Shown here: positions 6,366 through 35,125 of the stretch, in pieces
Position numbering within the stretch: the stretch's first letter is position 1
Layout of the letters: every line of letters starts with the position of its first letter
The notes under the pieces: generated by a model
The model's input: the letters and a program-made list of their open reading frames with translations, nothing else
The model's database searches: none
What the model was told of the DNA's origin: nothing
Assembly (NCBI GenBank): GCA_040394315.1
Contig: JBEBSM010000001.1
Location: 1 to 35,596 of the forward strand
Direction of reading: 5' to 3'
DNA length: 35,596 bases
DNA from: Lujinxingia vulgaris
GTDB taxonomy: Bacteria > Myxococcota_A > Bradymonadia > Bradymonadales > Bradymonadaceae
Program-made: the position numbers and the translations under genes

Positions 6366-7853
6366 ATGAGTGCATATAAAAAGCTTGAAAAACATCGGAT
6401 GAAACTGGGACGTGTTGGCGAGGCGCTTTCGGTATTGCACTGGGATTCATCGACGATGATGCCGGCGGGTGGAAGTCCAGGACGTTCGGAGCAGATTGCG
6501 GCGTTGCGTGGGATTTTTCATGAGCTGAAAACCGAGGCGTGGCAGGGCGATGCGCTGGCGGAAGCGGATGGGGATACGTCTCTGGATGCGTGGCAGCGTG
6601 CGAATCTTGAGGAGCTTAAGCGGGGCTGGCTACATGCGACGGCGGTTCCGGCGGATCTCGTCGAGCGGATTAGTCGTAAAGGGTCAGAGACTGAGATGGT
6701 GTGGAGGACGGCGCGACCGGCGAATGATTTTGCGCGTCTTGAGCCACATTTGCAGGAGGTGCTGGATCTGACGCGTGAGCAGGCATTGATTAAGGCTGAA
6801 GCGCTGGGGTGTTCACCTTATGATGCGCTTTTGGACCAGTATGAACCGGGCGGTTCGTCTGCAAAGATCGATGTGATCTTTGATGATCTGGCGGAGTTTT
6901 TGCCGGGATTTCTGGAGGCGGTACTGGATCGTCAAGCGAGTTTGCCGGCCGCGATTGCGTTGGGTGGACCGTTTCCTGTGGCGTTGCAGCGCGAGCTGGG
7001 TGTGGAGCTGATGAATACGCTCGGGTTTGATTTCAACAAGGGGCGTTTTGATGTCAGTCTGCATCCGTTTTGCGGCGGCGTGCAGGATGATGTGCGGATA
7101 ACGACGAATTATTGCGAGACTGATTTTCTGCGGAGTTTGATGGGCGTTTTACATGAGACCGGGCATGCGCTTTATGAGATGGGCTTGCCGTTGGCGTGGC
7201 GTTATCAGCCGGTGGGGAAAGCTCGTGGAATGAGCATACACGAGAGCCAGTCGCTTTTGGTGGAAATGCAGGCGGGTCGTAGTCCGGAGTTTGTGCGGTA
7301 TCTGGCGCCGTTGCTACGTGAGAAGTTTGGCAAGAGTGGTCCGGCGTGGGAATCGGATAATTTGTATCGGCACGTAACGCAGGTAAAACGTGGACTTATT
7401 CGGGTATCGGCCGATGAGGTTACGTATCCGGCACATGTGATTTTACGCTATCGGCTTGAGAAGGCAATGATCAGTGGTGCGTTGTCGATCAAGGATTTGC
7501 CGGAAGCGTGGCGGGCGGGGATGAAGGAGTTGTTGGGAGTGGATGTGCCTGATGATCGTGACGGGTGCATGCAGGATATTCACTGGATGGACGGATCGTT
7601 TGGTTATTTTCCGACGTATTCACTTGGAGCGATGACGGCGGCACAGCTTTTCCAGAGTGCGGAAGCACACGATAGTGATGTGAAGCCGGGGCTTGAGCGT
7701 GGTGATTTTGGACCGTTGATGCGCTGGATGGGCGAGCATGTACATGCGCGTGCGTCATTGGTATCGACGGATGAGTTATTGAAGGATGCGACCGGCTCGG
7801 AGCTGGATGCGTCGTATTTTAAAGCACATTTAGAGAAGCGATATCTTGGTTAA
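6366..7853 (+). CDS. Carboxypeptidase Taq-like metallopeptidase (family M32)
   Basis: The HETGHALYE zinc motif, IHESQS, DIHW and GYFPTYSLGA motifs and a ~495 aa length are typical of M32 thermostable carboxypeptidase 1. An AAGGA Shine-Dalgarno precedes the ATG. Confidence 0.92.
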   Translation: MSAYKKLEKHRMKLGRVGEALSVLHWDSSTMMPAGGSPGRSEQIAALRGIFHELKTEAWQGDALAEADGDTSLDAWQRANLEELKRGWLHATAVPADLVERISRKGSETEMVWRTARPANDFARLEPHLQEVLDLTREQALIKAEALGCSPYDALLDQYEPGGSSAKIDVIFDDLAEFLPGFLEAVLDRQASLPAAIALGGPFPVALQRELGVELMNTLGFDFNKGRFDVSLHPFCGGVQDDVRITTNYCETDFLRSLMGVLHETGHALYEMGLPLAWRYQPVGKARGMSIHESQSLLVEMQAGRSPEFVRYLAPLLREKFGKSGPAWESDNLYRHVTQVKRGLIRVSADEVTYPAHVILRYRLEKAMISGALSIKDLPEAWRAGMKELLGVDVPDDRDGCMQDIHWMDGSFGYFPTYSLGAMTAAQLFQSAEAHDSDVKPGLERGDFGPLMRWMGEHVHARASLVSTDELLKDATGSELDASYFKAHLEKRYLG

Positions 7854-8961
7854 TATTGATGAGCTGGTTGGCGAACAACTGGAGCTATTGCGTAAAAAAG
7901 ATGTTGAATTTAGACGTCGTCTTGCGAAGCTACAACAAGCGTATGGTGGTGGAAGTCGTCTGAGCGAAGAGTTGGATAAGCTTGAGGCGTCGGATAGAGC
8001 TTTTGCAAACCGGGTGGTTGCTTACGACTGGGTAGGCCTTGGTGAAACAATGGTTGACCGCTTGAGGCAGGCGTTTTTGGGGGAAGCGCCGGCGGTTGAT
8101 GCAAGTGGCCGAATCGCCTTTTATTTTGATCTGGAGCGCGCCGAAATCGGCTTGCGTGGGCGTGGCGTCGGGGGGGGCGATGTACGTGTTCGGCGCGCGC
8201 GCCTATTTGGCAAGCGAGAGGTCGTGCTGGACCTGGCTCTGGTATTTGATGAGCTGGTGGGTGGTGGGCAGCATACATCGAGCGTGTATCCGATCGTTTT
8301 TAGTCACGATGCGGAGCGTAATCGACGGCTGGTTTTGACAGCGACTGTGATCGAGCTTTTATGGCCGCAATTGACAGCGATGGCCAGGGGAGAGGTTGAA
8401 GGCGTGCGTTTTCCGGAGCATCGCGAACTGCGGTTGGAAATTGCGGCCAGTGCGTCAGGCGCGGCTTTGCTGACATTAACTTCGCGTGAGGGGGCTGTGG
8501 ATGATGTGCGGATTTCGGCGGTGCAGATTGGTTTTGGTGCAGAGCGTGAAATCGAGCGACAGTTGGACGAATACGTGGAAGTTGATGCTGATGCGAATTA
8601 TGGCCGTTTTTTGAAAGAGCGTCAGACAGGTGCGTATGAACGGCGAGATTTTGTGGAGCCGTTGGGGCGTAGTTGGAGTGTGCGTCTGGATCGTGAGCGG
8701 TATGAGATCGAGGAATATCAGCGAGAACGGCCGATTTTGACGATCAAGCGTGCGGTTCGTTTGCTCGATGCCGCGCCGTTTGTGCGAACGGTAGAGGCGT
8801 TCGCCAGTGAAGCGTTGGCTGATGAAGGTTACGAGCGTAAAGTGCGGTTGATAATCGACCAGGGTTTTCGTCAGGTTTATGAAGAAATATGCGGCGTGTC
8901 GGGCGTTGCTGAAAAACAACGCGGAACGGCGCTTTCATGGGAAGAAATAGCTGAGAATTGA
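7846..8961 (+). CDS. Hypothetical cytoplasmic protein, overlaps the M32 gene by 8 nt
   Basis: A long ORF with coding-like composition and a TTG start that overlaps the upstream stop. I recognise no motif. Confidence 0.55.
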   Translation: MVNIDELVGEQLELLRKKDVEFRRRLAKLQQAYGGGSRLSEELDKLEASDRAFANRVVAYDWVGLGETMVDRLRQAFLGEAPAVDASGRIAFYFDLERAEIGLRGRGVGGGDVRVRRARLFGKREVVLDLALVFDELVGGGQHTSSVYPIVFSHDAERNRRLVLTATVIELLWPQLTAMARGEVEGVRFPEHRELRLEIAASASGAALLTLTSREGAVDDVRISAVQIGFGAEREIERQLDEYVEVDADANYGRFLKERQTGAYERRDFVEPLGRSWSVRLDRERYEIEEYQRERPILTIKRAVRLLDAAPFVRTVEAFASEALADEGYERKVRLIIDQGFRQVYEEICGVSGVAEKQRGTALSWEEIAEN

Positions 8962-9161
8962 TATGAAATACGGTGTAAATACCGGGATTTGATCCGACTC
9001 AGGCCGGGTGTGCGTCTTGACTTTGATGTGGTGCCCGGTTTATCCACGTATTGGCCGTTTGGCCTCCTTGGTATGGGTAAGAGTGTTGAGTCGTACCAGT
9101 ATGAAGTTTGTATTTTGACTGGTTGATAAACTGGAAACACGTCGAAGATGACGAGGAATGC

Positions 9162-10193
9162 ATGAAAGTAGGGCAACGAAGTTGGATGTGGCTGGCAATT
9201 GTTTTGTGTGTGACTGGATTTAGCGTGTCACCGGCCGCCGCTGAGAAGCAAGTTGAAGACGAGATCGTGCAGCATACGGTCAACGAAGGCGAGACCATTG
9301 GTAGCATTGCATTACGCTACAAGGTTGGTGTTACGCAGTTGATGGGATGGAATAAGCTGGAGTCCATCGAACTTGAGCCACAGACGACGTTGATTGTGAA
9401 GTCGGCGGAAGTTATTAAGCCCAAGCCGGTTGCTGCTACGATGACGGTGTCTCACACTGTTCGTGCCGGCGAGACTTTTGAGGCGATTGCTAAAAAGCAT
9501 CGCGTTACGGTCAAGCAGATTCAAAACTGGAATCGACGAATTAATCCGCGGCGTTTGCAGATCGGACAGCGGGTAAGTCTGCATGTTCCGAATGTGCGAA
9601 CGGATGGAAAGAGTGTTTCCTGGGGCGCAGCCAATGGTGGTCGCTTGTATAACGGCGTTGCGATGAGCAGTGGGCCGGGCGTACGTGTTCGAAGTACGGC
9701 TCGTGCGTTTGGAACGCAGCGGACTGTCAATTTGCTGGAGGCAGCAGGGGCGGATGTAAAAGCTCGCTGGCCGGATGCGCCGGATTTGTTCATTGGAAGT
9801 TTGAGTGCGCAGCATGGTGGTCGTTTGCGCCCACATAAGAGTCATCAATCCGGCCGCGACGTGGATATTGCATTTTATCATCGCGGTAATGTCGCGATGG
9901 ATCAGTTTCGCAATATGACAGCCGAGACGTTTGATGCCGTTAAGAACTGGCATGTTTATAAAACGCTTATCGATGCGGACGAGATTGAGTACATTTTTAT
10001 AGACTATCGCTTACAGCAGGTTCTTCATGAGTACGCGCTTTCGATAGGTTATACGGCGGAAGAACTGGAACCGATTTTGCAGTATCCTCATGGTGCAAAT
10101 GCGCGAAGCGGTTTGATACGTCATGCTCGTGGGCATTTGAATCACGCTCATATTCGTTTCAAATGTGGTCCGGACGATCGTAATTGCCGATAA
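9162..10193 (+). CDS. LysM-domain murein endopeptidase (MepA-like, peptidase M74)
   Basis: The ATG at 9162 gives the signal peptide MKVGQRSWMWLAIVLCVTGFSVSPAAA. Two LysM repeats are present (HTVNEGETIGSIALRYKV..., HTVRAGETFEAIAKKHRV...). The C-terminal part carries HKSHQSGRDVDI and HLNHAHIRF, the penicillin-insensitive endopeptidase zinc motifs. The ORF track starts at a TTG at 9108. Confidence 0.8.
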   Translation: MKVGQRSWMWLAIVLCVTGFSVSPAAAEKQVEDEIVQHTVNEGETIGSIALRYKVGVTQLMGWNKLESIELEPQTTLIVKSAEVIKPKPVAATMTVSHTVRAGETFEAIAKKHRVTVKQIQNWNRRINPRRLQIGQRVSLHVPNVRTDGKSVSWGAANGGRLYNGVAMSSGPGVRVRSTARAFGTQRTVNLLEAAGADVKARWPDAPDLFIGSLSAQHGGRLRPHKSHQSGRDVDIAFYHRGNVAMDQFRNMTAETFDAVKNWHVYKTLIDADEIEYIFIDYRLQQVLHEYALSIGYTAEELEPILQYPHGANARSGLIRHARGHLNHAHIRFKCGPDDRNCR

Positions 10194-10236: not shown

Positions 10237-10719
10237 ATGAGCATGGCCTGGATCGAAGGTACAGCAAAGCAGTCGCTGGTAATTAATGCGCCGGTTTCGC
10301 GTGTTGTTGAGTTTTTTGCGGAGCCCGAGCAGCTGCGTGTTTGTCTGACGCAGCTTGAGAAGGCCGAGGAAATCGAGCCGAGCGTCTGGAAATGGACGCT
10401 TCGTGAAAAGAGTGAAAAGGGGATAAAGTTTCAGGGTATTTATACGGTTCGTTACACGCGTCAGGATGATTCGACGGTTGTGTGGGAAACGGTAGATGCC
10501 GAGACGATGCGTGCAGAAGGTAAGGTGGTTTGTCGTGCTCTGGGTAATAAAACGGAGATCGACTATGAGGAAACCATTGCAACCGATTTGCCGGTCCCAA
10601 AGCTTGCGGCAAAAGTGTTTCGGCCAATTGTTGCGCACGAGATCCGCAAGGATGTCGGGAGTTATCTCGAGCTTGTGAAGCAACATCTTGAGAAGACGCA
10701 CGCCGGAAATAAGCGCTGA
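10237..10719 (+). CDS. SRPBCC-superfamily (CoxG/Bet v1-like) ligand-binding protein
   Basis: About 160 aa with the pattern INAPVSRVVEFFAEPEQL...W, typical of SRPBCC small-molecule-binding folds. GGAGG at 10226-10230 is better spaced for the second ATG at 10243. The stop TGA overlaps the next ATG (TGATG). Confidence 0.55.
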   Translation: MSMAWIEGTAKQSLVINAPVSRVVEFFAEPEQLRVCLTQLEKAEEIEPSVWKWTLREKSEKGIKFQGIYTVRYTRQDDSTVVWETVDAETMRAEGKVVCRALGNKTEIDYEETIATDLPVPKLAAKVFRPIVAHEIRKDVGSYLELVKQHLEKTHAGNKR

Positions 10720-11915
10720 TGTCATCGGGAGAGGAGCCACAGAAATCGGGGTGGTTTGGACGATTCGGTGGTCGCTACGTTGCGGAGGCCCTGTGGACTC
10801 CTCTCGAGCAGCTGGCCGAAGCGTTTGATTCATCGCTTTTGGACGTGGAATTCATTGCTTCGTTTGAGTCCTGGCTTGATCATCGCATCGGGCGTCCCAC
10901 GCCATTAAGTCATTTTAAAACATTATCGGAACGCCTGGGTGGCGCACAGATCTGGGCGAAACGCGAGGACCTGTGTCAGGGCGGCTCGTTTGTGATCACG
11001 TCTGCCGTTTTGCAGGTAATGCTTGCAAAACGCATGGGTTGCACGGAAGTCGTGGCGGAATCCGGAACGGGTGATTTCGGGGCGGCGCTTGGCTCGGTCG
11101 GCGCTGGGTTGGGGATCGGCGTGCGGGTGTTTATGGGGCGCGAAGATCAGGAACACGAGCGTCTTAATATTGAGCGCATGAAAAAGTTGGGCGTTGTCAT
11201 TGAGACGGTGGATAGTTCAATGCGTGGTCGAAAGCGGTCGTGTTCGGAGGCTTTGCGCTATTGGGCGGAGCATTCTGAGCGGGTGTTGTACTGCGCGAGT
11301 TCGCTGGCCATGCCGGACCCGTATCCGCGGATTTTGGAGTACGGTTTGCGCGCCATCGGTGCGGAAACGCGCGTGCAGCTCAAGCGTCAGGGATGTGTGC
11401 CGGAGTATGTAATTGCACCGGTTGGCAGTGGTTCATTTGCGGCGGGTATTTTTGTTGATTTTGTGAACCACAGCGATATTCAGCTGGTGGGTGTTGAGGC
11501 CGGAGGGGATGGCCAGCGAAATTCGGCCAGTCTGGTACACGGGAGTCCTGGCGTGTTTCAGGGAACGATGTCGTATTTACTGCAGGATTCGAACGGTCAA
11601 ATTACCGTGCCGTATTCAATTGCGGGCGGGATGTGTGTGCCGAATGCGGGACCGCAGCATGCTGATTGGGCGGAGCGAGGACGTGTGCACTACGTTTCGG
11701 TAACCGATGAGGATGCCTGTCAGGCCGTGCAGTTGCTTGCTCGTACGGAAGGGTTGTTGATCTGCCTGGAAGCGGGGCATGCGCTTGCGTATGCGTTGAA
11801 GGTAGCGGCGACATTGGGCTCGGATGAGCATGTGGTCATCGGAATTACGGGCAGTGGCGAACGGGATTTTGACCGGCGTTGGCCGCACGGAGCAGAGGGC
11901 GGCGGGCATGAATAG
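10719..11915 (+). CDS. Tryptophan synthase beta-chain-like protein lacking the PLP lysine
   Basis: Collinear with TrpB: FGGRYV, GRPTPL, KREDL, LAKRMG, AESGTG, SIAGG...GPQHA. KREDLCQGGSFVITS aligns gap-free to KREDLLHGGAHKTNQ, so Lys87 becomes Val (codon GTG 10992-10994). GAGQHG becomes GTGDFG and GGGSNA becomes GSGSFA. Confidence 0.85.
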   Translation: MSSGEEPQKSGWFGRFGGRYVAEALWTPLEQLAEAFDSSLLDVEFIASFESWLDHRIGRPTPLSHFKTLSERLGGAQIWAKREDLCQGGSFVITSAVLQVMLAKRMGCTEVVAESGTGDFGAALGSVGAGLGIGVRVFMGREDQEHERLNIERMKKLGVVIETVDSSMRGRKRSCSEALRYWAEHSERVLYCASSLAMPDPYPRILEYGLRAIGAETRVQLKRQGCVPEYVIAPVGSGSFAAGIFVDFVNHSDIQLVGVEAGGDGQRNSASLVHGSPGVFQGTMSYLLQDSNGQITVPYSIAGGMCVPNAGPQHADWAERGRVHYVSVTDEDACQAVQLLARTEGLLICLEAGHALAYALKVAATLGSDEHVVIGITGSGERDFDRRWPHGAEGGGHE

Positions 11916-12705
11916 ACGGATTCAGGAATTGGAGTCGAATTTTCAGGCGACCGGACGAACTTTGTTGATGAGTGCACTGGTTGCGGGCGATCCGCACATT
12001 GATGCAACGCTGAAGTACATGAGAATTCTGGCGGAGTCGGGGGTTGACGGGATTGAGTTGATCGTGCCGTTTTCTGATCCGACGTATCATGGTCCGGTGA
12101 TTCAGCGGGCGTGTGCGCGGGCGATTCATGAGGATGTGAACTGGGCGGAAATTGGCGAGTTGGTTGCGGCGTTTCGGGAGGATTTTGATACGCTGCTGGT
12201 TATCTCGAGTTATTATAATCGGTTTTTGGCCAGGGGGCTGAGTACGTGCGCGCACGATATGGCGGAAGCCGGTGTAGATGGCGTGTTGATTACAGATCTT
12301 TCGTGGGACGAAGAATCGGACGCGGTTGCACAGGCGTTTGCGGAACAGGGAATTGCGTTGATCCGCACGGTTGCGCCGACGACGTCGTTGGATCGTTTTA
12401 AGCAGATTGTGCAGGATGCGCGTGGTTTTGTGGTGTGGACGGGGCATTCAGGGGGCGAAGTTACGGTCGAGCACGATGAGTTTGTGCGAACGCTGGATGC
12501 ATTGCGTGAAGTAACGAGTTTGCCGATTGTGGCGTCGATGAAGGTATCGACGGGCGAAGATGCGACAAGCGTCGGTTTGCATGCGGATGGCGTGCTGGTG
12601 CGGACGGCATTGGTGTGGTTGATCGAGGGGCGGGGGCCGGATCTTTCGGATAGGATCCGTCGTTTCATCGAAGAATTGCGTTCTACAACGGCTGAGCTTA
12701 CGTAG
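11908..12705 (+). CDS. Tryptophan synthase alpha-chain-like protein with altered catalytic and phosphate-site residues
   Basis: The ATG at 11908 overlaps the upstream stop by 8 nt. GVDGIELIVPFSDPTYHGPVIQRA aligns to [24 protein letters not shown]: Glu49 is kept and Asp60 becomes His (CAT 12088-12090). The GFGIS segment becomes SMKVS and the ISGSA segment becomes LVRTA. Confidence 0.8.
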   Translation: MNRRIQELESNFQATGRTLLMSALVAGDPHIDATLKYMRILAESGVDGIELIVPFSDPTYHGPVIQRACARAIHEDVNWAEIGELVAAFREDFDTLLVISSYYNRFLARGLSTCAHDMAEAGVDGVLITDLSWDEESDAVAQAFAEQGIALIRTVAPTTSLDRFKQIVQDARGFVVWTGHSGGEVTVEHDEFVRTLDALREVTSLPIVASMKVSTGEDATSVGLHADGVLVRTALVWLIEGRGPDLSDRIRRFIEELRSTTAELT

Positions 12706-12911: not shown

Positions 12912-15068
12912 TTAGTCGTTTTGCTCGGGTGGTGCGGTGGGCGAGTCGGGGGCGGAGTAGTGTTGAAATGCCTGTGCTATCTCGGGTGAAAGATTGTTGG
13001 AGCGCACGTGCAGATCGCGTTGTGGGAGCTGAATCTGGATGCCGGCATCGAACAGGGCTTCCCAGACAATGAAGTTGAATTGACCGCGGAATGTGAGTTC
13101 GTGAATTTTTCGGCAATCAAAATAGACAACGACTTTGAAGTGGATGCCGTCACCGCCAAATTCGGATAGCCATATTTCGGGTGGTGGGGACTGAAGGATC
13201 ATGGGGTGTTTTGTGGCAGCCTCGAGCAGGACCTGTTGGACCTGGCGAGGATTGCTTTTGTAGCTGACACAAACGGGAATGTGCAGTCGGACATGGCTGT
13301 CACGGTAGGTCCAGTTGGTGAGCTGTCCGCTCACGATGTCTTTGCTGGGCACGAGCAGGTCGACGTTGTCGGGGGTGTGGACGATGACGTTGCGCGCTCC
13401 AACGGAATCGACCTGGCCGTAGATGCCGTTGACGGTGATGAAGTCGCCTTTTTTAACCGAGCGACCAAATAGAATGATGAATCCTGAGATCAGGTTTTCG
13501 GTCAGCGTTTGTAGACCAAAGCCGATACCCACGCCAAGACTTGCCAGGACGACGAGCACGGCAGACAGGTGAACACCGAGGGCGAACAGCGACATGAAAA
13601 AAGCTACGACGACAAGCGTGTAGTTGATCAGCGTGTTGGTTGCGTAGGCGACGCCAATTTCGACGTGAAACGCAGGGTAAATCCGTGCGTTGAGCAGTGC
13701 TTTCAGCAAACGTGTAAAGAGAACGGTTGAGCCGACGATAATAACGACGTTGAGCAGATGGAAGAACGAAAGCTCCATCGCGCCGATCGCGACAAAAGGT
13801 ACTTTTAGCAGAGCGACCAGTGCTTCGTAGATACCGAGCAGTCGGAGGATCATACCGGTTAGTAGGACCGTACCGACGATCATTAAAAGCTGTTCGAAGG
13901 CTGCGTAGAGTTGAGCGGTATCTTCGTCGTTTGCATTCTGGGTGCGTAAAAATCGGCGCAAACGCTGCGCGCCGGCCAGGGCCAGGGTTACGAGCAGCAA
14001 AATTGCGTAGCTACGTAGTAGGATGAAACTGGCTGCGTGGACGTATCCCGCTGCGTTGAGCATGAGCAGGATAATCGTAACGCCGACTACCCAGTTATAG
14101 TAGCGCGTAATGGTGCGAAATAATGCTGCGTAGATGGACGACGTTTCGGGTTCTGGTAGCAGTGCGAGCACGGATTGGCGTGCAATGAACAGGTAGACGG
14201 CGGCGAGCGCCATGACGATTTTGAAGGCGAATAAGACGACGGCATAAAAGTCTTCGCGATAGCCTGTGATCGAGATGGTAGCGAGCGTGAGCCAGAAAAT
14301 TATGGAAATACGGGTAAACCAGACTGCGAATCTTTCAAGGCGCTGGGCGTGTTCCTTAGAGATGTTGAGGAATTGGCCACTTAAAAAGACTACGATTACG
14401 CCCTGGATTGCGCGGTACGCTAATAGTAGCCAGAGGGACTGGGTGAACAAAAGCGACCAGACGGCACGTTCAAACAGTGCTTGGACGGGAAAATAGCTGA
14501 CGGCGATCAGCATAAACACGGGGATACATCGCGCGACGATCAAGATGAGCGCGCGAATAACGTTGGTCAGTCCTCGTGAGATATCAAAATGGATCTGAGC
14601 CTGTAGACGCTGGCCTAAGCGCGTAAACTGGCGGTCGATGATCAGGAAAACGCCAAATAAAATCGAAATCAGCAATAAGGGGAACACCCAGCCGAGAATG
14701 GTTGTGGGTGAGGTGTTGTGAATGTTTCGGGCGATGCTATCGACGTTTTGAAAAAGCGTCACGGCGTCGTCGGCGATATGTCTTGGGAGATCCCAGGTGA
14801 AGCCGAGAGGGTCGCGTTCAAGGAATGCGCCGAAATGCGTTTCAAGAATCGCCCGGGCTTGCTCAAGTCCCTGGTCCGGAGCGCGGATCTCCAGGGGTGT
14901 GATATCTTGCTGAATAGTATCGGGTTTTTGCTTGTTTATTGGAGTTGTAGCGGAGGAGAGGTTGTCGAATAGGGACGTGGCGGTGGGCAAACACGCTGTT
15001 ACAGACAGCATGAAAAAGAGCCAGCCTGACAAGTAGAGCATACGAGAAAAGCGGAGCATACGGACCAT
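12912..15068 (-). CDS. Mechanosensitive ion channel family protein (MscS/MscK-like, multi-TM)
   Basis: The C-terminal MscS core is present (LISGFIILFGRSVKKGDFITVNGIYGQVDSVGARNVIVHTPDNVDLLVPSKDIVSGQLTNWTY), preceded by many TM helices. The ORF track begins at a TTG at 15134 with no Shine-Dalgarno. I prefer the ATG at 15068, though the ATGs at 15059 and 15041 are also possible. Confidence 0.88.
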   Translation of the reverse strand: MVRMLRFSRMLYLSGWLFFMLSVTACLPTATSLFDNLSSATTPINKQKPDTIQQDITPLEIRAPDQGLEQARAILETHFGAFLERDPLGFTWDLPRHIADDAVTLFQNVDSIARNIHNTSPTTILGWVFPLLLISILFGVFLIIDRQFTRLGQRLQAQIHFDISRGLTNVIRALILIVARCIPVFMLIAVSYFPVQALFERAVWSLLFTQSLWLLLAYRAIQGVIVVFLSGQFLNISKEHAQRLERFAVWFTRISIIFWLTLATISITGYREDFYAVVLFAFKIVMALAAVYLFIARQSVLALLPEPETSSIYAALFRTITRYYNWVVGVTIILLMLNAAGYVHAASFILLRSYAILLLVTLALAGAQRLRRFLRTQNANDEDTAQLYAAFEQLLMIVGTVLLTGMILRLLGIYEALVALLKVPFVAIGAMELSFFHLLNVVIIVGSTVLFTRLLKALLNARIYPAFHVEIGVAYATNTLINYTLVVVAFFMSLFALGVHLSAVLVVLASLGVGIGFGLQTLTENLISGFIILFGRSVKKGDFITVNGIYGQVDSVGARNVIVHTPDNVDLLVPSKDIVSGQLTNWTYRDSHVRLHIPVCVSYKSNPRQVQQVLLEAATKHPMILQSPPPEIWLSEFGGDGIHFKVVVYFDCRKIHELTFRGQFNFIVWEALFDAGIQIQLPQRDLHVRSNNLSPEIAQAFQHYSAPDSPTAPPEQND

Positions 15069-15259
15069 CGACGTCGGGTAGGGAAAGACGCGCAACAAAG
15101 AGAAATGTGTAACATTTGTCGGGATTTGTTGCAAAGGAGGTAGTTTTCACAGGGGACTTAGTTGCCAAGTAGTCAGTAGGCTGTTATAAAATCGCACTCT
15201 TACGTTGGTTAAGAAGAGTACTCGTACGACTTTGCGCATCAAATATTAGGAGATACCGC

Positions 15260-15763
15260 ATGAAAATTGCTCGCTACGTACTTGCATTGTTGATCATGAT
15301 GGCGATGTCATCTGTCGCCGTGGCGCAGGACTCAAAGCCTATCGATAACGAAGAATTTGGCGTTACGATTACTCCTCCTGCGAAGTGGGAAGTGACGCAG
15401 GGCAACGAAAAGGCTGTCGCCAATTTCAAACATCGTGGCTCACAGAGTCAGATCGAAGTGGTCGGCACCAAGTTGATGGCGTCGGATGTGGCAGACGTGT
15501 TTTTTAACACGTTTCACAAGACGTTGACGGAATCGAACTTCGAGCAAGTTAAGCAGGAAGAAGTTACGATCGGTGCTTTGAAAGGTCTGGAAACGACGTA
15601 TAAATTCGTTCATTCCGGCGTCACACTTGAAGTCGTGATCTTTCAGTTCCTTCGTGAAAGCACTGCCTGGTTGGTCGTTGGATACATGCAAGACGTTGAG
15701 AAAGACAAATATATCGACGACTTCAAGGCTGTTGTTAAGAACATCAAGTTTAAAGAGAGTTAA
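15260..15763 (+). CDS. Secreted hypothetical protein (paralog 1 of tandem pair)
   Basis: AGGAG lies 6 nt before the ATG. Signal peptide MKIARYVLALLIMMAMSSVAVAQD. Similar to the next gene. Confidence 0.7.
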   Translation: MKIARYVLALLIMMAMSSVAVAQDSKPIDNEEFGVTITPPAKWEVTQGNEKAVANFKHRGSQSQIEVVGTKLMASDVADVFFNTFHKTLTESNFEQVKQEEVTIGALKGLETTYKFVHSGVTLEVVIFQFLRESTAWLVVGYMQDVEKDKYIDDFKAVVKNIKFKES

Positions 15764-15766
15764 GTT

Positions 15767-16405
15767 TTGGGCCTTGCTTTGATTCGTAGGCTATGGACGA
15801 CAGGTCGGGTTTTTGCGTTTCACGCAGTGATCCTGATCTTTGTCGCGGGGGCCTACGAATCGGCATGGGCTCAAGATGCGGGTAATGAAGATTTGTCGGT
15901 TTCTGAAACGGACACGGATGTAGTCGATCCGAAGGCGTTGGGTAAATCGGCTGTCGCAAGCGATAGCGATCCGAACGTCTTTGTGAACTCAGAAGCTGGA
16001 ATCAAGCTTCAACGGGCTGGTGGTTGGCTGGTTGGAAGCGCGTCGCATGGAGCAGTTGCGTTGTTCCGTGCGGCTGGTGAGACTGAGGCGCAGATCGAAT
16101 TTCGCGTGAGCGAAGACATCGCTGAAGAGAGTCGTGTTAGCTATGTATCGGCCTTTCAGAACAGCTTGTTGCGCGTTGGTTTTATTGAGATCGAGGCGCG
16201 AAATCGAGTAAATTATAGTGGGCGGATCGGACAGGAGTACGAATTTCGTGCCTTATCCAATGGCATTGAATTTCGGCTGATCACGTGGTTGTTTGCGCGT
16301 GAAACGGAAGTCTGGATCGTGTCCGGTTTTTTCCCGTTATCGAAGCGCGATGCGTATTTCCGCGACTTTCAGAAATTTGTGAGAAGTCTGGAATTCACGG
16401 ACTGA
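15767..16405 (+). CDS. Secreted hypothetical protein (paralog 2 of tandem pair)
   Basis: TTG start 4 nt after the upstream stop. Signal-like N-terminus ending AWAQD. Collinear similarity to the previous gene (QIEF/QIEV, E..W.V.G, F..FV..L.F). Confidence 0.65.
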   Translation: MGLALIRRLWTTGRVFAFHAVILIFVAGAYESAWAQDAGNEDLSVSETDTDVVDPKALGKSAVASDSDPNVFVNSEAGIKLQRAGGWLVGSASHGAVALFRAAGETEAQIEFRVSEDIAEESRVSYVSAFQNSLLRVGFIEIEARNRVNYSGRIGQEYEFRALSNGIEFRLITWLFARETEVWIVSGFFPLSKRDAYFRDFQKFVRSLEFTD

Positions 16406-16438
16406 ATTTTTTTAATCAGGGGTAAATGTCGGCGATTA

Positions 16439-17596
16439 TCAAACGGTTTGACGCCGCTTGTTTCTTGTTTTGTTTCTTGTTTTGTTTCTTGCAAAGAGGC
16501 TGGTTGCAAGAAGGATGAGTAGTGGCGTGAAAGTTCTGGGGTTTGCGTGATCATGTATTAGCGTGGAGCAACTTGTTTGCGCATCTGGTGTTGGCGGGCT
16601 TTGCGGCCGAACGATTCTGCAGGTGCTCTGGTTTTCGGAGGTCAGGCATTGAAATTGGGCGGGGCAATCCGCATCGGTCTGGCAGAGTGCTGTGCAATAG
16701 CCGGTTCCGGTGGGCGGTGAATCAATGATACAGCCGTGCGCGCAGTGTAGAAGGTCGAGTGCGCAGTACTCGCCGGGGTTTGCCTGATGTTTCTGGCAGA
16801 CTTGGAATGTGCCATCGGTGACGCAGGAGCTCTGTGGGCAGTCGCTGTCGGTGGCGCATTCGGAATGGTTGCCGGGTTTGGGAAAGAGATGACAGAGCGC
16901 AAATTTATCGTCGGCGGCAAGCACACGTTGGCCTGCGTCGGGTAGATATTTTGCGGTCATGACGGCTGTGGCATCGTCCGACGAGTGCCAGAGGCCGAGA
17001 ACATGGCCGAGTTCGTGGGTTAGGACGCTCTGAAGATCGACAATAAGTGGACTTGCTGGTGTTTCGGTAGCTGTGTTTGGGGTGAGATATTGAAAGGGCG
17101 CGGGCTCAAGCGACCAGGTGAAGTGAGCGGTGTTGAGTGCGATCGCCGGGCTGTTCATGTTGGTTGATGCAATGAGTGTTTTTTGTTGATCCCAGTAATT
17201 TGATGGGGGGATAAAAACAGGGATCTCATTGGTAGCGACGTCGGCCAGGCTGTTTCGGAAGCCGTCGAACTGAAGACTGTCGAGCGCGCATGTGATGTCG
17301 TTCCACGTATCGACGGATCGTCGAATGGCGGTTTCGATGTCGTTTTTTTGTATGTTCTGGAGCTGGTCGCCGACAAAAACGACCGAATACGGAAAGTGTT
17401 GCGGATCGAGCAGGGGAGAGCCCCAGTGTTCCCAGGCTGTGTGTTGCCAGTGGGGGCGCTCGGTCGAGTCGCTCGGATTAGTGGCAAATAGTTCGGCTGA
17501 AGCTGTGGATAATTGAGGGCGCTCGTGGCTCATCAGGCTGGCGATTAGAAAGCCGGCGATACAGGTTGGAGCGAGTGCGGGGCGAAGTCGGTTCAT
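16439..17596 (-). CDS. Secreted metzincin-type zinc metalloprotease with cysteine-rich C-terminal domain and TM/basic tail
   Basis: HELGHVLGLWHS matches HExxHxxGxxH, followed by a Met-turn candidate (AVM). Downstream is a cysteine-rich region of more than 20 Cys. The tail reads SCS-15 aa-LLILLATSLFA-RNKTRNKTRNKRR. The ATG overlaps the upstream gene stop (ATGA). Confidence 0.8.
   Translation of the reverse strand: MNRLRPALAPTCIAGFLIASLMSHERPQLSTASAELFATNPSDSTERPHWQHTAWEHWGSPLLDPQHFPYSVVFVGDQLQNIQKNDIETAIRRSVDTWNDITCALDSLQFDGFRNSLADVATNEIPVFIPPSNYWDQQKTLIASTNMNSPAIALNTAHFTWSLEPAPFQYLTPNTATETPASPLIVDLQSVLTHELGHVLGLWHSSDDATAVMTAKYLPDAGQRVLAADDKFALCHLFPKPGNHSECATDSDCPQSSCVTDGTFQVCQKHQANPGEYCALDLLHCAHGCIIDSPPTGTGYCTALCQTDADCPAQFQCLTSENQSTCRIVRPQSPPTPDAQTSCSTLIHDHANPRTFTPLLILLATSLFARNKTRNKTRNKRRQTV
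16460..16491 (-). repeat. 12-nt tandem repeat (about 2.7 copies) inside the protease tail
   Basis: The plus strand reads GTTTCTTGTTTT twice plus a partial GTTTCTTG. On the minus strand this encodes RNKTRNKTRNK in frame. Confidence 0.8.
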
Positions 17597-29749: not shown

Positions 29750-29832
29750 GGAGGAGTGGCCGAGCGGTTGAAGGCACCGGTCTTGAAAACCGGCAAGCGA
29801 GAGCTTCGTGGGTTCGAATCCCACCTCCTCCG
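29750..29832 (+). tRNA. tRNA-Ser (anticodon TGA)
   Basis: Acceptor GGAGGAG/CTCCTCC, D-arm TGGCCGAGCGG, anticodon loop CTTGAAA, long variable arm, T-arm GTGGGTTCGAATCCCAC, discriminator G. No encoded CCA. Confidence 0.93.
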
Positions 29833-29901
29833 TTCCGCAAGTGCGGAGGGACGTAAGACGGTCGAGTTTGGCCGGTGTTTGTAATAACGCGAAAGCGTGT
29901 T

Positions 29902-29988
29902 GGAGAGATGGCCGAGTGGCTGAAGGCGCTCCCCTGCTAAGGGAGTATACGTGTAAACGTATCGAGGGTTCGAATCCCTCTCTCTCCG
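29902..29988 (+). tRNA. tRNA-Ser (anticodon GCT)
   Basis: Acceptor GGAGAGA/TCTCTCC, anticodon stem CTCCC/GGGAG with loop CTGCTAA, long variable arm, T-arm GAGGGTTCGAATCCCTC. Confidence 0.93.
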
Positions 29989-30036
29989 CTGAAATATCGT
30001 TCGCAGTTCTCGAAAGAGGGTGTGGACGAAGCGGTT

Positions 30037-30110
30037 GCACTTGTAGCTCAATTGGATAGAGCAATGGTCTACGGAACCATAGGTTGGAGGTTCGAACCCT
30101 TCCAGGTGCA
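30037..30110 (+). tRNA. tRNA-Arg (anticodon ACG), copy 1
   Basis: Acceptor GCACTTG/CAGGTGC, D-arm TAGCTCAATTGGATAGAGC, anticodon stem ATGGT/ACCAT with loop CTACGGA, T-loop TTCGAAC. Confidence 0.93.
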
Positions 30111-30113
30111 CTT

Positions 30114-30146
30114 GAAACACCCTTTGTTTAAGGGTGTTTCTTTTTT
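30114..30146 (+). terminator. Intrinsic terminator after tRNA-Arg copy 1
   Basis: GAAACACCC-9 nt loop-GGGTGTTTC followed by TTTTTT. Confidence 0.75.
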
Positions 30147-30204
30147 AAGCCCGCACGAGTTGTCAGTATTTGAATGAAAATTGACACACGGCAGGAAATA
30201 GAGC

Positions 30205-30233
30205 TTGACAAAACTAGCGGCACGGCCTACAAG
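30205..30233 (+). promoter_or_regulatory. Putative promoter for tRNA-Arg copy 2 (and possibly tadA)
   Basis: TTGACA (30205-30210), 17 nt spacer, TACAAG (30228-30233), about 44 nt upstream of the tRNA. Confidence 0.35.
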
Positions 30234-30277
30234 CCGTTTCGTTGTTGGCGGCTCGAAATGCAAGCAACACAAAGAAT

Positions 30278-30351
30278 GCACTTGTAGCTCAATTGGATAG
30301 AGCAATGGTCTACGGAACCATAGGTTGGAGGTTCGAACCCTTCCAGGTGCA
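30278..30351 (+). tRNA. tRNA-Arg (anticodon ACG), copy 2, identical to copy 1
   Basis: The same 74-nt sequence as 30037-30110. The flanks diverge within a few nucleotides. Confidence 0.93.
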
Positions 30352-30418
30352 CTTGAGACGGTCTTATTAACAGGCGTTTCTTTTTGAAGTACGTTGTAAC
30401 TACTGAGGCAGTACAGTC

Positions 30419-30934
30419 ATGAAAGGTGATAAAGCTTTCATGGAGCTAGCACTACAAGAAGCACGAGATGCTCAGGCATCGGGTGAAGTTCCTGTAGGTG
30501 CGGTGGTCGTTCACAAAGGCGTGGTCATTGCGACTGGTTCCAATCGCCGCGAAAGTTGGAACGACCCGACAGCCCACGCAGAATTGATAGCTGTGCGACG
30601 CGCAGCAGAACATCTGGGAAGCTGGCGGCTCGACGATTGTACGGTTTTTGTGACGCTTGAACCCTGTCCGATGTGTGCAGGGATGCTGGTCAATTCACGT
30701 GTTCCCCGCGTTGTTTTTGGAGCGCGCGATTCAAAGGCAGGTGCTTTTCGTTCGCTATATGCGATCGGAGACGATCCGCGACTGAATCATCGAATTGATA
30801 TCGTAGAAGGCTGTCTTGGTGCCGCGTGCGGAGAGATACTAACAGATTTTTTTCGTTCGATTCGTGAAGCTCAAAAGGCAAAGCGTGCGAGTGATAAAGA
30901 GCTTCCGGAATCATCGGAAGACGACGTTCTTTGA
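30419..30934 (+). CDS. tadA: tRNA-specific adenosine-34 deaminase
   Basis: The CDA-fold zinc motifs are HAELIAVRRAA and TLEPCPMCAGML, followed by RVPRVVFGARDSKAGA. This is collinear with TadA. Confidence 0.93.
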   Translation: MKGDKAFMELALQEARDAQASGEVPVGAVVVHKGVVIATGSNRRESWNDPTAHAELIAVRRAAEHLGSWRLDDCTVFVTLEPCPMCAGMLVNSRVPRVVFGARDSKAGAFRSLYAIGDDPRLNHRIDIVEGCLGAACGEILTDFFRSIREAQKAKRASDKELPESSEDDVL

Positions 30935-30963
30935 CATAGATACTCCCTGGGCGGGAAAATTAG

Positions 30964-31050
30964 GGAGGGGTGGCCGAGTGGTTGAAGGCGCTTGATTCGA
31001 AATCAAGTGTGCTTGAAAGGGTACCGTGGGTTCGAATCCCACCCCCTCCG
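30964..31050 (+). tRNA. tRNA-Ser (anticodon CGA)
   Basis: Acceptor GGAGGGG/CCCCTCC, anticodon stem CTTGA/TCAAG with loop TTCGAAA, long variable arm, T-arm GTGGGTTCGAATCCCAC. Confidence 0.92.
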
Positions 31051-31088
31051 TTGTACAAAATAGGGAGTAGTATCCAGAGAACGTTTCT

Positions 31089-31176
31089 GGGGAGGTGGCC
31101 GAGTGGTTGAAGGCGCACGCTTGGAAAGCGTGTATACGTTAATCGCGTATCGAGGGTTCGAATCCCTCTCTCTCCG
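31089..31176 (+). tRNA. tRNA-Ser (anticodon GGA)
   Basis: Acceptor GGGGAGG/TCTCTCC (two G-U pairs), anticodon stem CACGC/GCGTG with loop TTGGAAA, long variable arm, T-arm GAGGGTTCGAATCCCTC. Confidence 0.9.
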
Positions 31177-31177
31177 C

Positions 31178-31205
31178 TTGACATTACACCGCAAGGTGTT
31201 AAACA
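31178..31205 (+). promoter_or_regulatory. Putative promoter for the SRP RNA gene
   Basis: TTGACA (31178-31183), 16 nt spacer, TAAACA (31200-31205), about 14 nt before the SRP RNA helix. Confidence 0.3.
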
Positions 31206-31218
31206 AGACTTGAAACAA

Positions 31219-31330
31219 AGCTCAACCCTTGAGCGGTCGGCGCGACTACTGGCCTGGCACCTCGCCAGACCCGGGAGGGAGCAGCGAACCAGGCACAGGG
31301 TGTGCGTCGACCGCTGAGGGGTTGAGTTAG
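31219..31330 (+). ncRNA. ffs: Signal recognition particle RNA (small bacterial 4.5S type)
   Basis: A single long hairpin: 31221-31239 pairs with 31308-31326 with one G-G mismatch. The apical domain IV-like sequence is CGCCAGACCCGGGAGGGAGCAGCGAACCAGGCA, compared with E. coli CCAGGUCAGGUCCGGAAGGAAGCAGCCAAGGCAG. It has a GNRA tetraloop (GGGA) and the GGAGCA motif. Its position after tadA matches the tadA-scr synteny known in Bacillus. Confidence 0.82.
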
Positions 31331-33513: not shown

Positions 33514-33542
33514 TTGACCTGTTTTTGAATCGGTGCTACTGC
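33514..33542 (+). promoter_or_regulatory. Putative promoter of the riboswitch-led operon
   Basis: TTGACC (33514-33519), 17 nt spacer, TACTGC (33537-33542). The -10 element is weak. Confidence 0.3.
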
Positions 33543-33544
33543 CC

Positions 33545-33700
33545 AGCGCGTGAACGACGGAGCAGAAAGTCGGTACGAGTCCGACGCTGCCCCCGCAACT
33601 GTAATCGGTGATGAATCTGATGCAAACCACTGGCGAAATTTGGCCGGGAAGGAATCAGATGAAGATGACCCGATAGCCAGGATATTGCTTCGTCGTGGAT
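33545..33700 (+). promoter_or_regulatory. Cobalamin (B12) riboswitch-like aptamer
   Basis: Conserved blocks appear in the expected order: GGTACGAGTCCGAC (33572-33585), GCTGCCCCCGCAACTGTAA (33586-33604), CCACTGG (33627-33633) closing a 5-bp hairpin onto CCGGGAAGG (33644-33652), GATGACC (33664-33670), and the B12-box-like AGCCAGGA (33675-33682). Confidence 0.78.
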
Positions 33701-33712
33701 TGAACACCATTG

Positions 33713-33851: not shown

Positions 33852-34430
33852 ATGCGCTTTACCTTTGAAAACATTGTGGGTCGTCGTTTTCTTCTTGTTT
33901 TGATGACGGCGTTGCTGGCTCTTGGCATGGTTGCGTGTGGCGACGATGATGGCAAGGATTCCAACAACGACAAGACTGATGTTGGCCAGGTCCAGGAAGA
34001 CGCCGGGCAGGACACGGGTGTCAAAACCGACGCGGCTGATGAAGTCGATGCTGCGGACGAGCAAGATACCGAGGACGAAACCGATGCTGCTGACGTTCCA
34101 GAAGAGCTGGAAGTTCTGGGAAGCTGGTCATCGCAATATGGTGACGAGGAAATCACGGCTACGCAGTGGGGCTATAGCCCGCTGGTGAAATTTGATAACG
34201 CCGAGCGCGTCGCTTACACCCGTAGTGCGGATGATGCGGAGTACAATCCGGGCAAATACGGCAAGATTGTGTGGACACCGCTCGTCGACGATTCGTTCTA
34301 TTACTGCACGGTCGAGTATGCACTGGATACGCTGGAAGAAGCCGAAAACAGCACGACGGCCTTCGATGCAACCAATCCGGATGAGTCGGGTTGCGGTGGA
34401 TTTTCGTGGACGAAGTTGACGCGTAAATGA
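33852..34430 (+). CDS. Small acidic-linker lipoprotein, riboswitch-controlled paralog
   Basis: GGAG lies 7 nt before the ATG. Signal peptide ending GMVAC-GDDD, then a long D/E/T-rich linker. The C-terminal module reads KIVWTPLV..FYYC...LEE...NPDESGCGGFSWTKLTRK. Confidence 0.75.
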   Translation: MRFTFENIVGRRFLLVLMTALLALGMVACGDDDGKDSNNDKTDVGQVQEDAGQDTGVKTDAADEVDAADEQDTEDETDAADVPEELEVLGSWSSQYGDEEITATQWGYSPLVKFDNAERVAYTRSADDAEYNPGKYGKIVWTPLVDDSFYYCTVEYALDTLEEAENSTTAFDATNPDESGCGGFSWTKLTRK

Positions 34431-35125
34431 GTCAACTGGGCCATGGAGCCAGTATGAAGAGTTTTGCGAAATATCTTGTTTTGATGGGCACGTTGTTGTT
34501 CGCGTCGGGTTGCGGTGAGGATGCTGCAAACGGACGAGAAGTCGACGAGATTGCAGATCCTTATGCCAGCGAAGTGGTGAGTTTTACGCCTGGCGAAGGT
34601 GCAGGTTTTGGTCAAGATAAGATGCCGGAAGTTGTGCTGGGCGCGCCGCAGGGCAAGGGTACAAACGCTGGATCGTTGTCGGTATTGAGCCTGGGCAAAG
34701 GCGGTGAAATTGTGCTCGGTTTTGGCGATCATGTGATTGTCGATGGGCCGGGCGCAGATTTCGTGGTCTTTGAGAATCCGTTTTGGCCCGGTGGCAAGGC
34801 AGCCGATGTGTATGCAGAGCTTGGTGAAGTTTCGGTGAGTATGGACGGCGTTGCGTGGAAGACATTTCCTTGCTCTACCGAGCCCAGCGAGCCGGGGCGT
34901 TGGCCAGGATGTGCTGGCTGGACTCCGACGCTTGTTTATGATGCGGACGATCTTGTTCCGCTCGATCCGCAATTGAGTGGCGGTGACGCGTTTGATTTGA
35001 AGGACATCGGCGTCGGCGAAATTCGTTTCGTGCGGATTCGTGATGTTTCGAATAACGGCGATACACCGAGCGCTGGTTTTGATCTGGATGCGGTTGGCGG
35101 CGTTCATTTTCGCGGCAAGAACTGA
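34427..35125 (+). CDS. Hypothetical lipoprotein, translationally coupled to the preceding gene
   Basis: ATGA start/stop overlap at 34427-34430; an alternative ATG lies at 34454. Lipobox LFASGC. Conserved-looking blocks are FTPGEGAGFGQ, GADFVVFENPF, VSVSMDG, GCAGWTP, RFVRIRD and GFDLDAV. I cannot name the family. Confidence 0.72.
   Translation: MSQLGHGASMKSFAKYLVLMGTLLFASGCGEDAANGREVDEIADPYASEVVSFTPGEGAGFGQDKMPEVVLGAPQGKGTNAGSLSVLSLGKGGEIVLGFGDHVIVDGPGADFVVFENPFWPGGKAADVYAELGEVSVSMDGVAWKTFPCSTEPSEPGRWPGCAGWTPTLVYDADDLVPLDPQLSGGDAFDLKDIGVGEIRFVRIRDVSNNGDTPSAGFDLDAVGGVHFRGKN

Follow-up and report, generated by a model that had tools for sequence, protein, structure and literature searches.

Tryptophan synthase is a textbook pyridoxal phosphate (PLP)-dependent enzyme that serves as the model for how substrates are channelled and how subunits communicate allosterically. 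Here, we describe a locus of the Bradymonadales bacterium Lujinxingia vulgaris at which homologues of both synthase subunits are encoded side by side with their catalytic residues replaced. The analysed stretch of DNA (the window, 35,596 nt, positions 1-35596) was scanned with Pfam, NCBIfam, Rfam, PADLOC and PHROGs, and it contains three intact, coupled open reading frames (ORFs) on the plus strand, whose products are, in this order, an SRPBCC, a TrpB-like and a TrpA-like protein. The first gene (10243..10719) encodes a CoxG-like small-ligand-binding protein of 158 aa (MAWIEG...) recognized by Pfam COXG, and its TGA (10717-10719) overlaps the ATG (10719-10721) of the TrpB-like gene in the sequence TGATG. 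The TrpB-like gene (10719..11915, 398 aa; Pfam PALP, TIGR00263 and matches to TrpB structures) ends with a TAG at 11913-11915 that is overlapped by 8 nt by the TrpA-like gene (11908..12705, 265 aa; Pfam Trp_syntA and TIGR00262), starting with the ATG at 11908. The longest TrpA-like ORF would begin at 11824; the start at 11908 is preferred because the homologues are 264 aa long.

This coupled arrangement, including both junctions, had been described at the same coordinates in an original prediction made from the letters of the window, which had also proposed that the pair is flanked by no other trp genes; indeed, we found none in the 35.6-kb window. The SRPBCC start differs, because the homologues begin at the position of ATG 10243, which is therefore probably the true start codon, and not at the in-frame upstream ATG 10237 assumed before.

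Residue replacements in the two synthase subunits

The TrpB-like protein is homologous over its full length to solved TrpB structures and shares their fold-type II PLP fold (phmmer E = 2e-96), matches Pfam PALP with 143 bits and is clearly of TrpB1 descent. Its score against TIGR00263, 358.8 bits, lies below the trusted cutoff of 392.45, so that it falls outside the TrpB equivalog. Substitutions were read from phmmer alignments, free of gaps, to TrpB and TrpA of known structure and from a MAFFT mapping to Salmonella numbering, for which the Salmonella reference sequences were validated at 20 landmark positions. In the window protein, the Schiff-base lysine K87 is replaced by valine (Val92, GTG 10992-10994) and the preceding histidine by phenylalanine (H86F), accompanied by Q114D, H115F, G233S, N236F, R141H and D305C. 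R141 and D305 are the allosteric switch pair of TrpB. At the level of motifs, GAGQHG has become GTGDFG and GGGSNA has become GSGSFA. The substrate carboxylate loop (T110-H115) is changed by A112T, Q114D/E and H115F, and the neighbouring E109 is kept. The lysine and histidine replacements and both motif changes had been predicted, and the structure-based and Salmonella-numbered alignments bear them out.

These changes are not peculiar to the window. In a wide protein search with the TrpB-like sequence, about 82 clusters (90% identity) stood apart as a clade of their own, 45-100% identical to the query, whose members, where named, are Bradymonadaceae, Persicimonas, Lujinxingia or 'Myxococcota' metagenome-assembled genomes, all of them Bradymonadales; below this clade, identity drops to canonical TrpB at 42-46%. 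Counted over the 82 clusters, K87 is never lysine (Cys in 40, Thr in 25, Val in 5, Ser in 5 and Ala in 4), while all 37 canonical TrpB sequences used for comparison have lysine there. The replacements elsewhere are conserved: H86 is Phe in 74 and Tyr in 6, H115 is Phe in 75 and Tyr in 7, N236 is Phe in 75, Q114 is Asp in 65 and Glu in 14, C230 is Pro in 80 and G233 is Ser in 75. The PLP-phosphate site (H86 and G232-G233-G234-S235-N236) is thus lost clade-wide through H86F, G233S and N236F. R141 and D305 vary (A/S/Q/E and S/A/C, respectively), and E109, E350, R175 and S377 (as S/T) are retained. Of the positions with at least 95% conservation in canonical TrpB, 70 are retained, 17 are switched, that is, changed to a different residue conserved in the clade, and 68 are relaxed, the latter including K87, R141, K167, D305 and R379. 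We also considered a relocated catalytic lysine and rejected this possibility, as the lysine of the KREDL motif is the only invariant lysine in the clade alignment.

The TrpA-like protein scores 158 bits against Pfam Trp_syntA and 142.5 bits against TIGR00262, above the trusted cutoff of 102.35. In the window, E49 is retained, D60 is replaced by histidine (CAT 12088-12090), G211-F212-G213 by S-M-K and G234-S235 by R-T, and loop 6 is shortened to WTGHSGG. The TrpA-like clade comprises about 54-56 clusters, and residue states were counted over 54 of them at 90% identity. E49 is present in 54/54 and D60 is His in 53/54, so the E49/D60 catalytic pair is broken; A59 is Tyr or Phe in 54/54, P105 is Arg in 50/54, R179 is His in 54/54, T183 of loop 6 is deleted in 54/54, G211 is Ser in 52/54, F212 is Met in 53/54, and G213 is K, N or Q. 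The conservation of E49 and the D60H change agree with the original prediction, and its claim that the phosphate-binding residues are lost holds in part: the conversion of GFG to S-M-K/N/Q is a clade-wide feature, but R-T at G234-S235 occurs only in the window and the relatives closest to it, with G234 and S235 each retained in about 45-49 of the 54 clusters and G184 mostly retained. The site that binds the phosphate of indole-3-glycerol phosphate (IGP) is accordingly not intact (G211S, G213K in the window, T183 deleted), with G184, G234 and S235 partly kept in the clade. The former indole pocket is altered as well (F22A, L100S, Y175V, L177T), and the interface loop 2 (P53-F54-S55-D56-P57) is retained together with N104, D130 and G181. 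Of the positions with at least 95% conservation in canonical TrpA, 32 are retained, 6 switched and 20 relaxed, and a new strictly conserved set consists of I51, Y59, H60, S100, R105, T177, H179, S211, M212 and K/N/Q213. In profile alignments, there was neither a lysine at the PLP position of the TrpB-like protein nor an aspartate at position 60 of the TrpA-like protein.

Both genes are under strong purifying selection. Ratios of nonsynonymous to synonymous substitution rates (dN/dS), calculated by the Nei-Gojobori method for the window against its two nearest relatives and for these relatives against each other, were 0.070-0.121 for the TrpB-like, 0.079-0.165 for the TrpA-like and 0.087-0.112 for the SRPBCC gene, values that are approximate but still far from neutrality. 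The range of the synthase-like pair (0.07-0.17) is comparable to that of neighbouring real enzymes, namely an M32 carboxypeptidase (0.172) and a LysM-M74 peptidase (0.05-0.11) that we used as comparison genes. The loss of K87 (valine, as in the window, in 5/82 clusters) and the D60H change (53/54) are shared by the orthologues. AlphaFold2 models built with the clade alignments were of high confidence, with a predicted local distance difference test score (pLDDT) of 93.1 for the TrpB-like and 93.8 for the TrpA-like protein. The former model superimposes on Pyrococcus furiosus TrpB with a template modelling (TM) score of 0.90-0.95 and a root-mean-square deviation of 1.2-1.9 A, the latter on TrpA structures with a TM score of 0.85-0.94, showing at the level of predicted structure that both subunits keep their parental folds. 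Taken together, the catalytic and cofactor residues have been replaced by a new conserved set, and the fold, the elements of the subunit interface and the overlap of the two genes have been kept.

Gene neighbourhood across the Bradymonadales

Upstream of the trio lies a gene for a MepA-like murein endopeptidase with two LysM domains and a peptidase M74 domain (9108..10193, plus strand; Pfam LysM x2, Peptidase_M74). Translation probably begins at the ATG at 9162 and yields a protein of 343 aa, the N-terminal stretch of which, judged by eye, looks like a signal peptide. Downstream, a 740-aa MscS-family mechanosensitive channel (12912..15134, minus strand; Pfam MS_channel domains) is encoded convergently. 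We compared this neighbourhood in 11 independent loci (the window and loci L001, L003, L004, L086-L091 and L093), in which the TrpB-like proteins range from under 50% to 88% identity and all ORFs of the pair are intact. The order LysM-M74, TrpB-like, TrpA-like is invariant in 11/11 loci, even where the outer flanks differ, the TrpB-like and TrpA-like genes overlap by 1-8 nt in every one of them, and the gap from the LysM-M74 gene to the next gene is 10-191 nt. The convergent MscS gene is present in 8/9 loci that reach that far and absent in L001.

The SRPBCC gene lies between the LysM-M74 and TrpB-like genes in nine of the 11 loci and is absent in L087 and L093. The LysM-M74 gene is therefore a more constant neighbour of the pair than the SRPBCC gene, which is an accessory and not a universal partner. 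Of the SRPBCC upstream partner in the original prediction, the family assignment stands, by a marginal pass of Pfam COXG (23.3 bits against a gathering threshold of 22.2), and the link to the pair is weaker than supposed. Polyketide_cyc2 scored 21.4 bits, under its gathering threshold of 27.4. A profile search led to PDB entry 3p9v, an uncharacterised protein (E = 4e-15), and gave weak matches to a STAR-related lipid transfer protein and DR_A0006; the 17 SRPBCC homologues found are apparently all of one Bradymonadales-type group.

Near the operon, the Rfam scan detected neither a T-box or trp leader nor any further RNA element, and a scan for promoters and terminators yielded nothing exceeding shuffled expectation, so that the operon boundaries are presumed from intergenic distances. 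PADLOC gave zero hits in the window and PHROGs only generic LysM/endolysin, PALP and TrpA matches, leaving a defence or phage role without support.

Several further features were noticed. Three plus-strand ORFs without Pfam match (7846-8961, 15260-15763 and 15767-16405) recur at syntenic positions in many Bradymonadales loci. One of them, ORF 7846-8961, follows the M32 carboxypeptidase gene with an 8-nt overlap and is fast-evolving (dN/dS 0.29; 55% identity, versus 79% for the TrpB-like protein), and the other two form a pair just past the MscS gene. In L093, the most divergent lineage with the module, genes for bacterial microcompartment shell proteins (BMC, EutN/CcmL) and an aldehyde dehydrogenase gene are located about 5 kb downstream (14173-17146). 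Towards the end of the window, the plus-strand region 29750-31321 holds six clustered tRNA genes, with a tRNA-adenosine-deaminase-like gene (30419-30934) set between them, and then the small signal recognition particle RNA (31229-31321). A cobalamin riboswitch (33528-33705, plus strand; Rfam RF00174, 75.9 bits) precedes two ORFs without Pfam match (33852-34430 and 34427-35125), in keeping with reports that Bradymonabacteria are auxotrophic for B12 (Mu et al. 2020, PMC7460792).

The window also has a GC skew of +0.24 overall (+0.16 to +0.33 per 5-kb bin) and an AT skew of -0.08, irrespective of gene orientation, and at third codon positions of its plus-strand genes the fraction of C is 0.11-0.19, compared with 0.34-0.49 for G. 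The two closest relatives share the skew (L090, +0.22; L091, +0.30), whereas other Bradymonadales loci range from -0.01 to +0.11. The GC content of these other loci is 0.59-0.66 (0.54 in L004), versus 0.53-0.57 in the group of the window, L090 and L091. The pattern suggests a very strong mutational bias that is linked to the strand and specific to this lineage, accompanied by loss of GC.

A proposed function and the alternatives

Bradymonadales are predatory, polyauxotrophic Myxococcota. The absence of a tryptophan pathway in these hosts is taken from published tables: in no Bradymonabacteria genome is the route to tryptophan complete, nor are those to many further amino acids, trpD is absent in 13/13 genomes, as are chorismate mutase, serC and serB (Table S2), and in another table trpC, trpD and trpE are absent in most predator columns (Mu et al. 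2020, PMC7460792). Because trpD is absent, IGP, the normal substrate of TrpA, is not made in these hosts. Our own contig scan with the clade alignment used generic patterns, and the 80 loci listed were canonical trpB from unrelated taxa.

On balance, we favour the view that the two proteins are order-wide descendants of tryptophan synthase that no longer make tryptophan and form a PLP-free alpha-beta complex. The retained interface residues and the gene overlap suggest that the subunits still assemble, and such a complex would operate without PLP. The TrpB-like protein would be a pseudoenzyme and an obligate structural or allosteric partner of the TrpA-like protein, a reading suggested by the lysine position taking any small residue (C/T/V/S/A), by the relaxation of R141 and D305 and by the three ligands that have become aromatic. 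Going by homology, the Phe or Tyr residues at H86, H115 and N236, polar residues that contact PLP or substrate in TrpB, probably fill the former cofactor pocket. The TrpA-like protein is favoured as the working subunit because its site has been rebuilt with strictly conserved polar residues and not relaxed. It would bind, and possibly cleave, a ligand other than IGP. In this subunit, going by homology, H60, H179, R105, S211 and K/N/Q213 would be placed beside the retained general acid/base E49; the pocket would be wider and more polar (F22A, L100S, Y175V, L177T), and the anion site appears half kept in most members (G184, G234, S235). The SRPBCC protein might serve, in most lineages, as an accessory carrier of a small hydrophobic ligand.

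The module is probably co-transcribed with the presumably secreted LysM-M74 endopeptidase, and its role may be tied to peptidoglycan turnover, to cell-wall or prey-derived material and to predation, a link suggested, through synteny, by the invariant adjacency of the LysM-M74 gene. A fuller version, which we offer only tentatively, is a PLP-independent alpha-beta machine with an E49/H60/H179/R105 site in the alpha barrel, possibly binding a metal or an anion, an obligate pseudo-beta subunit and an SRPBCC carrier, acting on a cell-wall or prey metabolite during predation. The original prediction had named a repurposed alpha-beta scaffold that is non-catalytic, sensory or engaged in new chemistry. 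Repurposing is supported by the confirmed substitutions, by their recurrence in orthologues throughout the order, by the low dN/dS and by the published absence of the rest of the trp pathway, and its three options can be refined: as judged from the alignments, the beta subunit looks like a true pseudoenzyme and the alpha subunit like a protein with a strictly conserved new polar site.

Several observations weigh against our proposal or parts of it. A purely structural role of the TrpB-like protein leaves the kept residues E109, E350 and S377 unexplained. Synteny is broad throughout the order, and the linkage to the LysM-M74 and MscS genes could reflect this general synteny instead of a shared function. 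The dN/dS values are approximate because dS is high (0.8-1.3) and the composition of the lineage strongly biased.

It is plausible, though in our view less likely, that both subunits are wholly non-catalytic and serve as a scaffold or, via protein-protein contacts, as a sensor of small molecules such as prey-derived indole, tryptophan or serine. All classical catalytic elements have been lost except E49 in alpha and E109 in beta, many once-invariant beta positions are relaxed, plants provide the precedent of a TrpB-derived pseudoenzyme, and a host auxotrophic for tryptophan would profit from sensing prey metabolites. However, the conserved module lacks a gene for any output domain, be it for signalling, DNA binding or another purpose, and the rebuilding of the alpha site with strictly conserved H60, H179, R105, S211 and E49 is more typical of a working site. 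Whether the pair might still be a tryptophan synthase or an indole-salvage enzyme, with non-covalently bound PLP or a relocated lysine, turns on the beta active site. The high overall homology to TrpB and TrpA, the TIGR00262 score of the TrpA-like protein and the retention of E109, E350 and S377 (as S/T) speak for such an activity, as does PDB entry 2tys, the beta-K87T mutant of the Salmonella enzyme with ligands bound at the active site. This mutant still binds PLP; it is, however, catalytically inactive, and in the Bradymonadales protein the loss goes much further, with H86 and N236 converted to Phe, G233 to Ser and Q114-H115 to D/E-F, D305 and R141 lost, no alternative invariant lysine, and a TrpB-like score under the equivalog cutoff. 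As the hosts are also reported to lack a complete tryptophan pathway and, without trpD, have no IGP, we regard a conventional activity as very improbable.

Hardly credible is the view that the genes are simply pseudogenes, or relics in decay since the trp pathway was lost. The loss of catalytic residues and the absence, according to the published tables, of the remaining pathway from the order would be expected from decay, but not ORFs that are intact in 11/11 loci, dN/dS of 0.07-0.17, conserved replacement residues, a preserved stop/start overlap and confident fold models. That the orthologues share the same changes order-wide agrees with the original prediction, which had already argued against simple decay.

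Relation to known systems and lysine-less TrpB elsewhere

Compared with the canonical alpha2beta2 complexes of TrpA and TrpB1 (Salmonella, 1K3U and 1QOP; P. furiosus, 1WDW; the ancestral LBCA enzyme, 5EY5), the Bradymonadales pair shares the folds (TM about 0.9), with identities in the fold alignments of 44% for beta and 26-37% for alpha, and the trpB-trpA order with overlapping stop and start codons. Common elements are PFSDP, N104, D130 and G181 in alpha and the N-terminal FGGxYV motif, R175, E109 and E350 in beta. In contrast to canonical TrpB, the Schiff-base lysine, the ligands of the PLP phosphate, the carboxylate loop and the R141/D305 switch are missing, and in contrast to canonical TrpA, the alpha subunit carries D60H, has T183 deleted and G211-G213 lost, and lacks a trpEGDCF context. 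The pair resembles TrpB2, the 'TrpB-like PLP-dependent enzyme', in that the latter is a divergent TrpB family that may occur outside trp operons; the lysine is preserved in TrpB2 enzymes, which are active. Membership in TrpB2 (TIGR01415, PRK12391) was tested and rejected, at 96.5 bits against a cutoff of 518.85.

The one described parallel that we could find is the plant TSB-like protein, a TrpB derivative that has lost tryptophan-forming activity and that selection maintains as a partner for the alpha subunit of tryptophan synthase (TSA) (Florean et al. 2025, Nat Chem Biol, PMC12727527). It differs from the genuine beta subunit (TSB) mainly by the replacement of E105 by Ala and of D300 by Glu, has been modelled with PLP in its active site, regains some tryptophan synthesis through the single substitution A190E, and activates a fully catalytic TSA that releases indole (PMC12727527). 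The Bradymonadales beta subunit is likewise derived from TrpB and encoded next to a TrpA-type gene, and we infer loss of activity and complex formation for it. However, it keeps E109, has lost the lysine, which the plant protein keeps, together with the PLP site, and has D305 converted to S/A/C (C in the window). Whereas the plant TSA is catalytic, the Bradymonadales alpha subunit is remodelled, without D60, T183 and the G211/G213 loop, and has no source of IGP. Our literature searches found no work on a bacterial lysine-less TrpB or TrpB pseudoenzyme, and the plant TSB-like study alone surfaced; within this literature, the Bradymonadales pair is the first found in bacteria with both tryptophan-synthase subunits remodelled.

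A profile was run exhaustively against 1.84 billion representatives (50%-identity clusters), and the result indicates that loss of the lysine is not confined to this order. Among the best 138 representatives covering the K87 column, 33 lack the lysine, 5 of which carry the Bradymonadales-type signature and 28 of which are heterogeneous, suggesting several independent origins within metagenomic sequence space, although some may be fragments or errors. The heterogeneous set includes proteins from Celeribacter halophilus (WP_303485030.1), Pacificibacter marinus (WP_215944866.1) and a Lachnospiraceae metagenome-assembled genome (MBR1758066.1), all annotated as tryptophan synthase beta. In C. halophilus (GCA_030548225.1, JAUOSA010000017.1, 324-8033), a 4-nt overlap joins the lysine-less TrpB-like gene (H86N, K87Y, E109D, H115N) to a TrpA-like gene, in an operon with the order AraC, TrpA-like, FGGY kinase, sugar ABC transporter, TrpB-like, TrpA-like that adjoins genes for a SmoA-like monooxygenase and flavin reductases. 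E49, D60 and the GFG loop are all present in the two TrpA-like proteins of this operon. The substitutions thus differ from those in Bradymonadales, the alpha subunit is of the catalytic type, and the context is a sugar operon and not LysM-M74. This combination of a pseudo-beta with a catalytic-type alpha is closer to the plant system than the Bradymonadales pair is, and it may represent a bacterial counterpart of the indole-releasing plant system or a catabolic lyase system.

If our interpretation is correct, the Bradymonadales pair shows that the alpha-beta scaffold has uses beyond tryptophan synthesis, with both subunits having lost their chemistry yet stayed coupled, and it constitutes a bacterial counterpart, more radical, to the plant TSB-like pseudoenzyme. 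The finding also matters for annotation. NCBI labels the TrpB-like protein 'pyridoxal-phosphate dependent enzyme' and the TrpA-like protein 'tryptophan synthase subunit alpha', and JGI and UniRef label both as tryptophan synthase; with these labels and a TrpA-like protein that passes the trpA equivalog cutoff, metabolic reconstructions could wrongly credit tryptophan-auxotrophic predators with the last steps of tryptophan synthesis. Beyond this order, the lysine-less TrpB homologues of unrelated bacteria, apparently undescribed so far, point to a wider and apparently unstudied class of TrpB-derived proteins.

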